NCBI GenBank assembly: GCA_947652375.1
Contig: CANTCS010000004.1
Coordinates: 542-64,541 of the forward strand
Reading direction: 5' to 3'
DNA: 64,000 nucleotides
Origin: an uncultured Mollicutes bacterium
Lineage (GTDB): Bacteria; Bacillota_I; Bacilli_A; RF39; UBA660
A program made the translations under genes and the position numbers. Numbering within the stretch: the first letter of the stretch is position 1; each line of letters starts with the position of its first letter. The notes under the pieces were generated by a model. That model saw only the letters and a program-made list of their open reading frames with translations. It had not been told where the DNA came from and did no database searches. Shown piece after piece: positions 6,080 to 39,619 of the stretch.

Positions 6080-6280
6080 GTGAATTTAATGAATAATAAA
6101 AAGCAAACTGAAAAAAAAATACAAGAAAAAATAAAAAAAGTTGATGGTGCTATGGCTCAAGAGGGAATGCCATTAACTAAAGAAATAAAACAAAAACTTT
6201 ATAATTGTATAACTGGGAAGTCAACAACTGAAATAGAACGAAATAAAGTATTAGAAAAATATAGGAGAATCTATGGATAA
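6080..6280 (+). CDS. VbhA-like Fic antitoxin (small inhibitory partner)
   Basis: 66 aa ORF overlapping the Fic start by 8 nt. AMAQEG resembles the (S/T)xxxE(G/N) inhibitory motif. The true start may be ATG 6089. Confidence 0.7.
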   Translation: MNLMNNKKQTEKKIQEKIKKVDGAMAQEGMPLTKEIKQKLYNCITGKSTTEIERNKVLEKYRRIYG

Positions 6281-6944
6281 TAAATACAAATATACTTTTG
6301 AAAAAACTGCTGATTACTGTTATAAAGATACTGATGTTTTAATAAATAAACTTAATATAACAAATGATGAAGATTTATTTAATGCCGAAAGAGAACTTGT
6401 ATCTTTAAGAACTTATGAACTAAATGAAAATCCATTAAAAGGGAATTTTGATTTTAAGTATTTAAAAGTTATTCATAAATATTTGTTTCAAGATGTTTAT
6501 AGATGGGCAGGAGATATAAGAAATTGTAATATTGCTAAACAAGATTTATTTTGCTTATCAGAACATATAGAATCATTTGGTACTGATGTATTTAATAAAG
6601 TAAAAAAAGAAAAATACTTTGTAGATTATGATAATGAAACAACATTAGATAAATTAGTGGAATTATTTGCAGATATTAATGCTTTGCACCCTTTTCGTGA
6701 GGGCAATGGCAGAAGTCAAAGAGTATTTATAGAATCACTTGCCAAAATAAATGGAATAAACTTAGATCTTACAAATGTATCTAAAATGGATATGATTGTT
6801 GCTAGTCATGAAAGTATTAATGGCGATTATAAAAAATTAAAGGATATGTTTAAAAATAATAGTCATAATTTAAGTGAAGATGAACAATCAGAATATATAA
6901 ATATTTATTGCTCTGATGAACTAAAACACTTAATAAAATATTAG
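6273..6944 (+). CDS. Fic/DOC family protein (AMP-transferase toxin type)
   Basis: Canonical Fic motif HPFREGNGRSQR, matching HxFx(D/E)GNGRxxR. Confidence 0.92.
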   Translation: MDNKYKYTFEKTADYCYKDTDVLINKLNITNDEDLFNAERELVSLRTYELNENPLKGNFDFKYLKVIHKYLFQDVYRWAGDIRNCNIAKQDLFCLSEHIESFGTDVFNKVKKEKYFVDYDNETTLDKLVELFADINALHPFREGNGRSQRVFIESLAKINGINLDLTNVSKMDMIVASHESINGDYKKLKDMFKNNSHNLSEDEQSEYINIYCSDELKHLIKY

Positions 6945-6949
6945 GAGAA

Positions 6950-7330
6950 TTGGAAATGAAATTAAAAGTGCTAGAAGATAATAATACCTTTATTGATGAA
7001 TATTATTTGGGAGAACCCGGAGTCTCTTATTATATCGAAGATGGTGTTGAAAAAATATTATTTGATACAGGATATTCTTCTGTTATATTAGAAGAAAATG
7101 CAAGTAAAATGAACATTGACTTAAACAAGATAAATAAGCTAGTAATGTCCCATGATCATGATGAACATACTGGAGGTTAAAATATTTTTTTTAGAAGAAA
7201 AGAAACATTGAATTAATTGCCCATCCAGATTGCTTTAACTATAAAGAAGATGGAACTGGCTTATATATTGGAAGTCCACTTAGTAAAGAGGAACTAAACA
7301 GATTAGCGAAGTGTAGATATACCTACTCAT
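6950..7330 (+). pseudogene. Decayed metallo-beta-lactamase-fold gene
   Basis: The N-terminal 76 aa carry LFDTGYS and SHDHDEHTGG (HxHxDH) and then hit a stop. A continuation (ELIAHPDCFNYKEDGTGLYIGSPLSKEEL) lies in another frame. The gene is cut off by the adhesin cassette. Confidence 0.75.
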
Positions 7331-28396: not shown

Positions 28397-28542
28397 TTCT
28401 TTTTTTTATAAAAAAATCTACAAATTATTAAATTTTGATTAAATTATTATTATATGTAAGTCTTATATTTATTTAATTTTGAATAATTTGCGTTTAAAGA
28501 AAATACTTGCTAATATTCTATTAATAATGTTATAATGAATAT

Positions 28543-28655
28543 GTCAAGGAAACTTGCATAAAATAAAAAAGGAATACCTAGTTTTGAAGAGTTAGGTACT
28601 ATTCCAAAAAATAAATGTTCAAGTACCGACTTTAAACAGTTGATACTATTTTTAT
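28543..28655 (+). ncRNA. Predicted antisense RNA (type I antitoxin candidate), copy 1
   Basis: TTGCTA-18-TATAAT (28507-28536). The conserved 5' segment GAATATGTCAAGGAAACTTGCATAAAATAAAAAAGGA is shared with copy 2. Terminator AGTACCGACT/AGTTGATACT plus a U-run at 28622-28655, overlapping the 3' end of the toxin ORF. Confidence 0.4.
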
Positions 28656-28724
28656 TAAAATGATTAAAATCACAATAATAAGGAGAATTATGATAGTACA
28701 AAGATATTTCTCTGTTTTTTTCAT
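28632..28724 (-). CDS. Small hydrophobic peptide, type I toxin candidate (30 aa: MKKTEKYLCTIIILLIIVILIILIKIVSTV)
   Basis: GGAGGTG lies 6 nt before the ATG. Single TM peptide. The SD can pair with upstream CTCCTTT. Terminator with U-run downstream. A paralogous module is at 39296-39385. Confidence 0.6.
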   Translation of the reverse strand: MKKTEKYLCTIIILLIIVILIILIKIVSTV

Positions 28725-29045
28725 AATTTTCACCTCCTTTCACTTTTTAAAGTAAAGGAGAATAGTACCTAAACTAACTAAATATTCCTGAATTAATTAT
28801 ACCGAACATTTGTTTTTAATACAATAGCTTTATTATAGTTTGATAAATTATTGTAGAGTAGTAAAATTAATTTAAAACTATAATGAGGTATAGAAGAAAT
28901 ATATGATATCAAAATTTTTTTATATAAGGAATTATAACAATATTTATAAGAAATATTTTTAAAACTAGTTTATTTTTTATGGGACTTAACTTTAAGATTA
29001 TATAAATATTTTAGGTGTTTTGAAAGTTTTTATTTGGAAATATAT

Positions 29046-36098: not shown

Positions 36099-36158
36099 TG
36101 AAAATATTTATTTTTTTGTTAAATGTGTTATAATAACGTATTAAAAAGAGGGGTTGTT

Positions 36159-37961
36159 ATGGCAAAAGTAAAATATTTTATTGCAAATATGCCTTTAAAA
36201 GAATGGTGTCTTTTAAATGGTTATTCTTATAGTACTGCAACTAATTTTATTGCTAGAAACAAGAATAAATATTTAATTGTTGATGATTTATTAGAAGCAT
36301 TAGAAGATTATTTAAAAAATATGAATACCTTTTATTATTATGAAGGGTTGCTTTTTAAAGAATGGTGTAATTTAAATGGATATTCATATAATACAGCTTT
36401 TTCAATATTAAATAAACTTAAAAGTGAAATTACAGATAAAGATGAGCTAGTTAAACAGACTGTTCTGTTACTTAAGGAAACACCACGAAAAACACAGTAT
36501 TTTTATAAAGGGCAAAATTTAATAGATTATTGTAGAGAAAATGATCTTAATTATTCAACGATTCTTTCAAGGATTAGAAAAATAAAGAAATATAATAAAG
36601 ATATAGAAAATGATGCTGCTGTTATTATTGCTATTGAAGATTATACTGATACAAGATGTAAATTTTTTTATAATGCTATGTCTTTAAAAAGATATTGTGA
36701 GTTAAATGGTTATGATTATCCTTATATTTATCGTCAAATTAAAGATTTAGATGAGAATGATGCAAAAGATAAAATGAAAGCTTATTTTGAAAATGCTCCT
36801 GTAAAGATAAATGGAAGTTATAAAATAGCAGGTCTAAGTTTAAGGCAATATTGTATAAAAAATAATTATAATTATTCAACTGTGAAATCATATATTAGCT
36901 TTGTAAAGAAAGAATATCCTTCTTTTACACAAGAAGAAGTTGTTATCACTGCTATAAATTATTATAAAATTAGATATATTGATAATGAAAAGTTTTTTTA
37001 TAAAGGAGAAAAACTTATAGATTTTTTAAAAAGAGTTAATTGCTCTTATAAAATTTTTATGTATTATTTAAGTCATATGAGAGTGGATGATTATAATTTA
37101 TCTGATGAAATAGTAACTAAATGTCTTTATAAATGTAGAATAAAATTACGTAATGATTTATTTAAAAGTTTAGAAGAGATAGATTATAATACTTGTTTAG
37201 AAATTGCTAAGAATTTATCAATTGATGAAGACTGTTTAAATAAATTAGTAGGATATGGTTTTTCTTATAAAAAGGCTATAAATTTTATTTGGTATTTTGG
37301 AACTTTTAATGTTAATAAGTTAATTATTAATGATGAACAAATAAAAAAAATAATTATGAAAGATGTATCAAGGAATATGGATTTACTATTATTAATAGGT
37401 TATTATAAAAGTGGTTTAAGTGATACAAGAAATTTAATTATTGAAAAGGTTTATTTATCTTGTATGGCTATTTTAAATAAATTATTAGAAGTATACTCAC
37501 TTTTTAATCAAGAAGTAAAAGAAGAATTAAAATGTCAATTGTATTTATTAATACTTGAATTTATTGAAAAAACTAATAGTAATAGTTTAGAGGAAATTAA
37601 TAGTTATTTGAATAATTATATAAGAGGTAAATTATTAAGTAAAATTTTAAAGTATCTTGAAGAAATTAAAGATATAAGTTTAAATCAAACGTTAAATAAC
37701 GATGAAAAAACTAAGTTAGATTTTATAGTTTCCAAAAATAGTATTGACAGAGAATATATAAGTAATGAATTATTTGAAAGTATATTAACTCTTTCTTTTA
37801 TAGAACAAAAGGTTATTATATTATTTTATCAGAAACAGTTTACGAAAGAGGAAGTAGCGTTAAAGTTAAATATTACTGTTCAGGAAGTAGTTGATATTAA
37901 AAATACAAGTTTAGAGAAATTACAAAAGAAGATAAAACCGAATGTAAAAATAAAAAAGTAG
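36159..37961 (+). CDS. Sigma-70 region-4-containing protein with six N-terminal ~55 aa HTH-like repeats
   Basis: Repeats of the form (Y/F)FYxGxxLx(E/D)(W/Y)CxxNGYxYST... occur six times. C-terminal LSFIEQKVIILFYQKQFTKEEVALKLNITVQEVVDIKNTSLEKL resembles sigma region 4.2. TGTTATAAT extended -10 upstream. Confidence 0.7.
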   Translation: MAKVKYFIANMPLKEWCLLNGYSYSTATNFIARNKNKYLIVDDLLEALEDYLKNMNTFYYYEGLLFKEWCNLNGYSYNTAFSILNKLKSEITDKDELVKQTVLLLKETPRKTQYFYKGQNLIDYCRENDLNYSTILSRIRKIKKYNKDIENDAAVIIAIEDYTDTRCKFFYNAMSLKRYCELNGYDYPYIYRQIKDLDENDAKDKMKAYFENAPVKINGSYKIAGLSLRQYCIKNNYNYSTVKSYISFVKKEYPSFTQEEVVITAINYYKIRYIDNEKFFYKGEKLIDFLKRVNCSYKIFMYYLSHMRVDDYNLSDEIVTKCLYKCRIKLRNDLFKSLEEIDYNTCLEIAKNLSIDEDCLNKLVGYGFSYKKAINFIWYFGTFNVNKLIINDEQIKKIIMKDVSRNMDLLLLIGYYKSGLSDTRNLIIEKVYLSCMAILNKLLEVYSLFNQEVKEELKCQLYLLILEFIEKTNSNSLEEINSYLNNYIRGKLLSKILKYLEEIKDISLNQTLNNDEKTKLDFIVSKNSIDREYISNELFESILTLSFIEQKVIILFYQKQFTKEEVALKLNITVQEVVDIKNTSLEKLQKKIKPNVKIKK

Positions 37962-39042: not shown

Positions 39043-39118
39043 GTTCAGATAGTCTAAGTGGATAAAATATTTCCCTCCGACGGAAATGTTAAGGGTTCGA
39101 ATCCCTTTCTGAACGCCA
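39043..39118 (+). tRNA. tRNA-Arg (anticodon CCG), CCA encoded
   Basis: Folded by hand. 7-bp acceptor GTTCAGA/TCTGAAC. Anticodon stem TTTCC/GGAAA with loop CTCCGAC. T arm AAGGG-TTCGAAT-CCCTT. D loop AAGTGGATA. One C-A mismatch in the D stem. Confidence 0.7.
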
Positions 39119-39189
39119 TTATGTAAACATGTCAGTAACAATAGAAAACGCACTTGATAATGATGTGTATTTTATGTTATTATGAATAT

Positions 39190-39305
39190 GTCAAGGAAAC
39201 TTGCATAAAATAAAAAAAGGAAATACTTAACTTTGGCTAGTTGAGTACTTACCTAAATATTTAGATTTGTACTTAATCTTTTGCTAGATTGAGTACTATT
39301 TTTTT
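39190..39305 (+). ncRNA. Predicted antisense RNA (type I antitoxin candidate), copy 2
   Basis: TTGATA-18-TATTAT (39154-39183). Conserved 5' segment shared with copy 1. 10-bp terminator stem 39269-39278/39287-39296 plus a T7 run, overlapping the toxin stop codon. Confidence 0.45.
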
Positions 39306-39385
39306 ATGCATAGAATTATTAAAGAGACTATTAATAAAATGATAATTAATATTAGAAATGAGATTAACAAATCTTTTTTCTTCAT
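39296..39385 (-). CDS. Small hydrophobic peptide, type I toxin candidate (29 aa: MKKKDLLISFLILIIILLIVSLIILCIKK)
   Basis: AAGGAGGC lies 8 nt before the ATG. The SD can pair with upstream GCCTCC. Single TM peptide. Paralogous organisation to 28632-28724. Confidence 0.6.
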   Translation of the reverse strand: MKKKDLLISFLILIIILLIVSLIILCIKK

Positions 39386-39619
39386 AATATCAAGCCTCCT
39401 TTCTCATGAGTTGGAGGCAAGTACTCAACAGTTTAGTATTTTCTAATAAAAATTATACTATAAAGGAAAAACTAAAAAAGTGAACAATTTTGATAATTTA
39501 TATTATACTTATATTAGTTAAAATTATTACTATTTCTTATATTATTAGGGTTAAAAATTGGAAAGAGATTAAAGAAATTTTAGAAAATATCTAATCTTCA
39601 TTTAATCAAGGAGGGAAAT

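Follow-up and report, generated by a model that had tools for sequence, protein, structure and literature searches.

Both parts of a type I toxin-antitoxin (TA) system are tiny and unannotated, which makes these systems hard to find; only three phyla and a handful of families are represented among those known (PMC12390103). Two recognised hallmarks of type I toxin mRNAs are a sequestered Shine-Dalgarno (SD) sequence and a long-distance interaction of the 5' with the 3' end (PMC8594479). In Bacillus, the antitoxins that overlap the 3' end of their toxin mRNA are complementary to it over 100-140 bp and promote its decay, which depends on RNase III (PMC6562991, PMC3834814), and SR4 buries the SD of bsrG (PMC3834814). 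Here we describe a locus at positions 39154-39484 of a 64,000-nt stretch of DNA from an uncultured Mollicutes bacterium (assembly GCA_947652375.1, contig CANTCS010000004.1, positions 542 to 64,541), referred to below as the window. It is a convergent gene pair, in which a minus-strand open reading frame (ORF) for a hydrophobic peptide of 29 aa faces a plus-strand gene for an antisense RNA of ~115 nt. The locus is probably a chromosomal type I TA module with a 3' overlap, of a family not yet described, whose expression and toxicity we infer. On sequence grounds we file it as a new putative type I family and not as a member of any named one. Its architecture and the conservation of that architecture, coding selection on the ORF, and covariation in a long-range helix of the mRNA and in both hairpins are established in silico.

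A first-pass annotation, made from the letters alone, had read the locus as a second type I toxin/antisense module with the same plus/minus layout as one at 28500-28800. The two modules indeed align over ~340 nt, and the reading is supported as far as sequence analysis goes: the architecture recurs in at least 119 loci, and 84 of the 108 complete copies retain the antisense hydrophobic ORF intact. These loci were found through an exact 19-mer of the antitoxin 5' hairpin in a scan of a species-representative genome set, and all family counts given here (of 84, 108, 122 or 125 copies, and of subfamilies) are among the matches listed. The block reported as common to both copies in the window is confirmed by its 30-nt part ATGTCAAGGAAACTTGCATAAAATAAAAAA, which is identical at 39188-39217 and 28541-28570, with 0 chance matches expected. 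A profile search with nhmmer gives these two copies only and no third, diverged one within the window. The carriers are nearly all metagenome-assembled genomes (MAGs) of uncultured Bacilli, Tenericutes, Erysipelotrichaceae and Candidatus Ventrenecus from animal and human guts, often with several diverged copies per genome. Loci L016, L038, L056, L068, L073 and L078 each have two or three modules from distinct toxin subfamilies, arranged in tandem or head to head and 300-1200 nt apart. The genomic context of the modules differs between genomes. Where two genomes share only 70-78% identity in the flanking genes, the modules themselves are 82-92% identical in DNA sequence. Neither blastn against phage and plasmid collections nor a 19-mer scan of viral contigs gave a match.

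The two predicted RNAs overlap by ~96 nt (39210-39305) in perfect complementarity, which takes in the toxin 3' untranslated region (UTR) and, of the ORF, no more than the stop codon and the final ~3 codons. The toxin mRNA is predicted to be ~236 nt long, from about 39445 to 39210 on the minus strand, while the antitoxin RNA would start at about 39188-39191 and end near 39305 (Table 1). The antitoxin promoter is present where the first-pass annotation had put it, with its -10 box preceded by TG, and no other site in the region gives a better promoter match; like the convergent toxin promoter, it is near consensus. This promoter is kept across the family, with TG in 121 of 125 copies, a -10 box of the form TAnnnT and a -35 box of the form TTGnnA, and it is stronger than the sense (toxin) promoter. 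The terminator had been correctly located too, and is the sole terminator-like site found, against 0.1 expected. The antitoxin RNA folds at -28.7 kcal/mol (z = -4.4) into a 5' stem-loop, an A-rich linker, a hairpin termed H1 (39219-39253) and the terminator hairpin H2, and it matches the family profile with an nhmmer E-value of 4e-32. Ten copies without the exact 19-mer retain the 5' stem through compensatory changes, as in GUGAAG-GAAA-CUUCAU and AUGGAG-GGAA-CUCCAU, and the conserved block is therefore read as an RNA hairpin rather than as a DNA site; the 19-mer as a DNA operator or a minus-strand promoter is disfavoured on the same ground. Both hairpins covary: H1, or its complement H3 in the toxin mRNA, is 79% paired with compensatory changes at 10 of 13 pairs, and H2 is 79% paired with such changes at 8 of 10. 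The A-rich 5' linker of the antitoxin, TGCATAAAATAA, also complements the RNA's own 3' tail, TTTTTTTATGCA (39202-39213 with 39299-39310), and a mirror-image pairing is possible in the toxin mRNA, between the last codons and the terminator U-tract.

The minus-strand ORF reported by the first-pass annotation is present and encodes a single hydrophobic helix with lysine-rich ends. The intact ORFs of the family encode 24-33 aa, start 179-213 nt downstream of the motif and fall into at least five subfamilies. Within subfamilies, synonymous changes make up 42% of the observed variants as compared with 24% of the possible changes (p = 1.6e-11), and it is this excess that leads us to read the ORF as a protein. 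The remaining 24 of the 108 copies have decayed, through internal deletions, in-frame stops or loss of all but the antitoxin half. A toxin -10 box TATAAT is found at the homologous position in 65 of 84 copies. In the window, this family consensus corresponds to TATAAT at 39457..39452, a small correction which puts the predicted start of the toxin mRNA within ~2 nt of the 5' pairing element described below. The interval 39386-39450 contains no leader ORF, such as the mok of hok/sok. Neither the Hok nor the Fst_toxin profile matches any of five subfamily peptides, and exact look-up of eight peptides (from both window copies and six other loci) returned 0 hits in a collection of 15 billion proteins.

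Such a peptide could instead be non-toxic and serve, for instance, as a regulatory or accessory subunit in a membrane complex, which would make the locus a gene for a small membrane protein under cis-antisense regulation rather than a TA system. Purifying selection fits any functional peptide, and the weak profile similarities detected are all to single-helix membrane subunits, namely SecE (E = 0.02), KdpF (E = 0.09) and MacP, although these lie far below the cut-offs. Against this stand the several diverged copies per genome and their tandem arrays, the variable genomic context, the inactivation of the ORF in nearly a quarter of the complete copies, where the antitoxin half is sometimes the remnant, the strong but buried SD, and an antisense promoter that outdoes the sense promoter. 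These traits are typical for type I toxin loci and unusual for housekeeping subunits, and we consider a non-toxic peptide unlikely.

The two ends of the toxin mRNA are predicted to pair with each other. Inverted repeats flanking the ORF had been noted in the first-pass annotation and are present at 39240-39254/39415-39429 (15 nt, 93%) and 39289-39297/39420-39428 (9 nt, 100%); in copy 1, the repeat at 28592-28604/28760-28772 (13 nt, 100%) has a different sequence. A second, adjacent inverted repeat had been missed, at 39218-39232/39430-39444 (15 nt, 87%). The proposed 5'/3' helix is thus present but only half of it had been seen, as the 5' element complements both arms of the terminator hairpin H3. 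For the toxin mRNA, the predicted fold has -57.5 kcal/mol (z = -4.9) and joins the 5' end to the 3' hairpin. When the 84 toxin mRNAs with an intact ORF are aligned, RNAalifold returns a sole consensus helix, formed by the 5' element and the first arm of the 3' hairpin, in which 10 of 11 pairs show double changes. The covariation first suspected from two copies is accordingly borne out in the family, and the further homologous copies keep the 5'/3' complementarity across the alignment. In the extended structure as we specified it, 81.4% of the cells are paired. Sliding the 3' partner by 1-3 columns lowers this share to 33-53%, and of 500 shuffles, 0 attain the observed pairing. The core helix of 14 pairs has 91.8% of its cells paired and compensatory changes at 13 pairs, several of which show four to six pair types.

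Duplex energies computed without an alignment also cover the outer panhandle, where column counts are weak. Cognate 5'/3' duplexes average -34 kcal/mol, against -19 across subfamily clusters and -10 when shuffled; the clusters are a crude similarity grouping from a mis-framed translation, which makes the cross-subfamily contrast conservative. Among the non-Watson-Crick cells of the long-range helix, G.U on the toxin strand is 4 times as frequent as C.A, an asymmetry that indicates selection on the minus-strand RNA and speaks against DNA-level terminal repeats. Since the H3/H1 hairpin covaries too, the first arm of H3 has two alternative partners. The 5' element is nearly identical to antitoxin H1 minus its loop: on the predicted folds, the toxin mRNA in effect carries a copy of its own antitoxin's recognition hairpin, which occupies the antitoxin's target.

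This resemblance also allows a different site of action, in which the antisense RNA would act mainly on the toxin 5' UTR in trans, as in Fst/RNAII and SprA1/SprA1as, with the 3' overlap being secondary. Being nearly palindromic, H1 has partial complementarity to the 5' element beside the SD, so that the arms of this element can pair imperfectly with the opposite arms of H1, and in Fst and SprA1 the functional interaction lies outside the overlap (PMC8594479). The 5' element, however, pairs on average at -34.2 kcal/mol with its own 3' hairpin and at -17.0 kcal/mol with antitoxin H1, the intramolecular pairing is the stronger one in 83 of 84 modules, and the wobble asymmetry fits the intramolecular helix; action on the 5' UTR in trans appears quite unlikely. 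It is very improbable that the inverted repeats are the DNA-level ends of a mobile element resembling a miniature inverted-repeat transposable element that inserts beside tRNA genes, with RNA pairing as a by-product: multiple copies per genome, module DNA better conserved than the flanking genes, the fixed position after tRNA genes and the short tRNA 3'-end fragments ahead of some copies would suit such an element, but DNA-level repeats would show no strand asymmetry of the G.U kind, the repeats do not bound the conserved unit, which extends beyond them to include both promoters and the antitoxin 5' hairpin, and the phage, plasmid and viral collections gave no matches.

The SD and the upstream GCCTCC described in the first-pass annotation are both present. 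The hairpin between them fits the alignment, with 75% pairing across the family, but it shows no covariation, because the SD is invariant. The SD is strong yet buried; in every state modelled, the prediction is that SD and AUG alike are base-paired.

Several observations weigh against assigning the locus to type I systems. Pfam and NCBIfam scans of the five toxin subfamily peptides at E <= 10 returned no toxin family. Rfam, at gathering thresholds and at permissive E-values, returned tRNA only, with SpF41 and tsr33 far below threshold, and no toxin or RNA sequence homology to the B. subtilis 3'-overlap systems was detectable with Rfam, Pfam and NCBIfam. The carrier genomes are nearly all MAGs of uncultured organisms. 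The outer panhandle helix is only 61% paired column-wise, because its register differs between subfamilies. The compensatory changes mostly separate about 5-6 subfamilies, so that independent events are far fewer than cells, and the statistics ignore phylogeny. Finally, the predicted probability that the SD is unpaired is ~0.18 in the free, the antitoxin-blocked and the 3'-truncated mRNA alike (Wilcoxon p = 0.36). A model after SR4, in which antitoxin binding frees the 5' element and the anti-SD to bury the SD, was dropped because SD accessibility is unchanged.

With the SD switch set aside, the decay mechanism common to 3'-overlapping Firmicute systems appears to be the best supported one, and we infer that the two RNAs are expressed, the peptide is toxic and the antitoxin promotes decay. 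In the mechanism that we propose, modelled on the Bacillus 3'-overlap systems, the first ~28 nt of the toxin mRNA would pair with both arms of its own terminator hairpin, closing the mRNA on itself. In this closed state, with the SD buried, we expect the primary transcript to be stable and to undergo little translation. The antitoxin would target exactly the terminator region already bound by the 5' end of the toxin mRNA; it would probably enter at the free hairpin just past the stop codon, zip through the 3' UTR and displace the 5' end. RNase III would then cut the resulting long duplex and the toxin mRNA would be removed as long as the antitoxin is made.

Table 1. Predicted features of the module, its flanks and its sibling copy, in window coordinates.
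Feature	Position	Strand	Remarks
tRNA-Arg(CCG)	39043..39118	+	ARAGORN; Rfam tRNA 55.6 bits; directly upstream of, and co-oriented with, the antisense RNA gene
tRNA trailer/spacer with GTAACAATAGAAAACG	39119..39153	+	GTAACAATAGAAAACG is common to conserved ~77-nt tRNA-to-module spacers elsewhere
Antitoxin promoter	39154..39183	+	-35 TTGATA, 18-nt spacer, TG-extended -10 TATTAT
Antitoxin RNA, predicted, ~115 nt	39188..39305	+	Fold z-score; nhmmer family profile
Antitoxin 5' stem-loop ATGTCAAG-GAAA-CTTGCAT, GNRA loop	39188..39206	+	Same in copy 1
Hairpin H1 of antitoxin; its complement is toxin mRNA terminator hairpin H3	39219..39253	both
U-tract after H3	39218..39207	-	Toxin mRNA terminator (H3 and U-tract, 39253..39207, U7AU4)
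Antitoxin intrinsic terminator H2	stems 39269-39278/39287-39296, T-run 39299-39305	+	Overlaps toxin stop and last codons
Toxin ORF, 29 aa, MKKKDLLISFLILIIILLIVSLIILCIKK	39385..39296	-	Stop TAG 39298..39296; one predicted transmembrane helix
SD AAGGAGGC	39401..39394	-	Local fold with anti-SD
Anti-SD GCCTCC	39418..39413	-	Complementary to SD 12 nt downstream
5' pairing element GAAAATACTAAAC-TG-TTGAGTACTTGCC	39443..39416	-	Complements both arms of H3
Toxin promoter	39452..39484	-	-10 TATAAT 39457..39452 (or overlapping TATAGT 39462..39457), -35 TTCACT 39484..39479
Sibling module, copy 1	28507..28800		Antitoxin promoter 28507-28536; 5' hairpin 28541-28559; H1 28571-28605
Copy 1 toxin ORF MKKTEKYLCTIIILLIIVILIILIKIVSTV	28724..28632	-	Copy 1 5' element about 28798..28760

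The tRNA-Arg gene does adjoin the module, as the first-pass annotation had it, and this type of site is a property of the family: a co-oriented tRNA (Leu, Thr, Arg, Met, Ala or Lys) or tmRNA ends 42-109 nt upstream in 45 of 122 copies (~37%). The view of the site as a generic accessory insertion is, however, less apt than that of a fixed junction with the conserved terminator of the tRNA. The distance from the CCA end to the 19-mer has a sharp mode at 75-79 nt, and the spacer between tRNA and module is conserved; it contains a terminator-like hairpin, with the antitoxin -35 box in the hairpin loop. Module-free tRNAs carry a related trailer, GATTGATA..AAACTCGAAC-loop-GTTCGAGTTTT, which is their own terminator. 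Such a junction is found at 39043-39187 of the window and at L004, L008, L018, L020, L027, L033 and L038, as well as at L047, L052, L064, L078, L083, L089 and others. The module-free form, GATTGATAxxAAACTCGAAC-loop-GTTCGAGTTTT, was seen in the 100 nt after each of the tRNAs of L014 (Leu), L015 (Ala), L016 (Thr), L031 (Arg) and L074 (Leu). The trailer is conserved across tRNA identities and genomes, which is unusual for tRNA 3' flanks.

Two further arrangements were observed at tRNA-related sites. At L048, L094, L097, L116, L003 and L036, an ~11-nt fragment like a tRNA 3' end (..CGCACCA) lies about 80-95 nt upstream of the 19-mer without a full tRNA, which resembles an att-type partial tRNA duplication. 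At L092 (about 6286-6376, minus strand), an antitoxin-like body consisting of the A-rich linker, H1 and H2 directly follows a tRNA-Leu and lacks the usual promoter and 5' hairpin; it may be a copy that has decayed, or else an antitoxin transcribed together with the tRNA. The fixed junction suggests that the module spread by recombination at conserved tRNA trailers, or that it is functionally coupled to tRNA transcription. It is doubtful, though conceivable, that the family amounts to more than one further type I TA system and is a TA system wired to the tRNA loci of reduced-genome gut bacteria. If it were, the built-in copy of the recognition hairpin would control whether the antitoxin and nucleases can reach the toxin mRNA, and the supply of antitoxin could depend on read-through or occupancy of growth-rate-controlled tRNA transcription units; alternatively, under the same tRNA-wired arrangement, the module could spread via recombination at the conserved tRNA trailers.

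Elsewhere in the window, a match at 6956-7273 to DNA beside the modules of L048 and L020 was traced to an unrelated frameshifted ORF and rejected. That ORF, ~80% identical to the L048 and L020 DNA, looks metallo-beta-lactamase-like by eye, and the preceding ORF in the same region (6273-7300), at 6273-6944, looks Fic/DOC-like, both judged from the translation alone. A 612-aa ORF at 36123-37961 has a sub-threshold C-terminal match to sigma-70 region 4 (20 bits, cut-off 24.1), and no Pfam match in the rest of its length.

The putative family is absent from Rfam, Pfam and NCBIfam, yet it is carried by well over 100 species-level genomes from uncultured Bacilli and 'Tenericutes' of the gut. In annotation, its loci would otherwise pass for empty intergenic DNA. 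About 100 natural variants document the covariation of a long-range mRNA helix with unusual clarity and, because this helix would compete with an antisense RNA for one site, the competition is directly testable. The fixed junction with tRNA terminators, in turn, gives a handle on how the module spreads or is regulated.

Among the described systems, Fst/RNAII (par of pAD1) and SprA1/SprA1as resemble the locus in their Firmicute host, convergent transcription, hydrophobic toxin of ~30 aa and translation-limiting 5' structure. The Fst toxin profile does not match here, and there is no shared bidirectional terminator as in Fst/RNAII: the two predicted RNAs end at separate terminators, and each is transcribed through the complement of the other's hairpin. 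The antitoxin also pairs only weakly with the toxin 5' UTR here (-17 kcal/mol) relative to the intramolecular helix (-34), in all but one of the modules with an intact ORF. In hok/sok and AapA1/IsoA1, as proposed here, the full-length toxin mRNA is closed into a compact form with poor translation by the pairing of its distant 5' and 3' ends (PMC8594479); the likeness is one of analogy only. The hok/sok systems belong to a different, Gram-negative host lineage, and the peptides described here show no Hok homology. Whereas in hok/sok the antisense binds the 5' leader and processing removes the 3' fold-back element, the antisense gene here sits opposite the 3' fold-back partner, for which the antisense RNA and the 5' end would consequently compete.

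The closest counterparts are bsrG/SR4, bsrE/SR5, txpA/RatA and bsrH/as-bsrH of B. subtilis, in which convergent RNAs likewise overlap at their 3' ends. Complementarity is long and perfect in both cases, ~96 nt here and 100-140 bp there (PMC6562991), and the toxins are small and hydrophobic, with 30 aa in BsrE and 29 aa in BsrH, like the 29-aa peptide of the window. In addition, both have a buried SD and an antisense terminator hairpin placed for first contact (PMC3834814). The window module differs from these systems in that its overlap reaches the last codons only and in that an SD switch like that of SR4 on bsrG is not predicted. It is chromosomal and tRNA-adjacent, not in a prophage, and the 5' end of its toxin mRNA is predicted to pair with the very hairpin targeted by the antitoxin.

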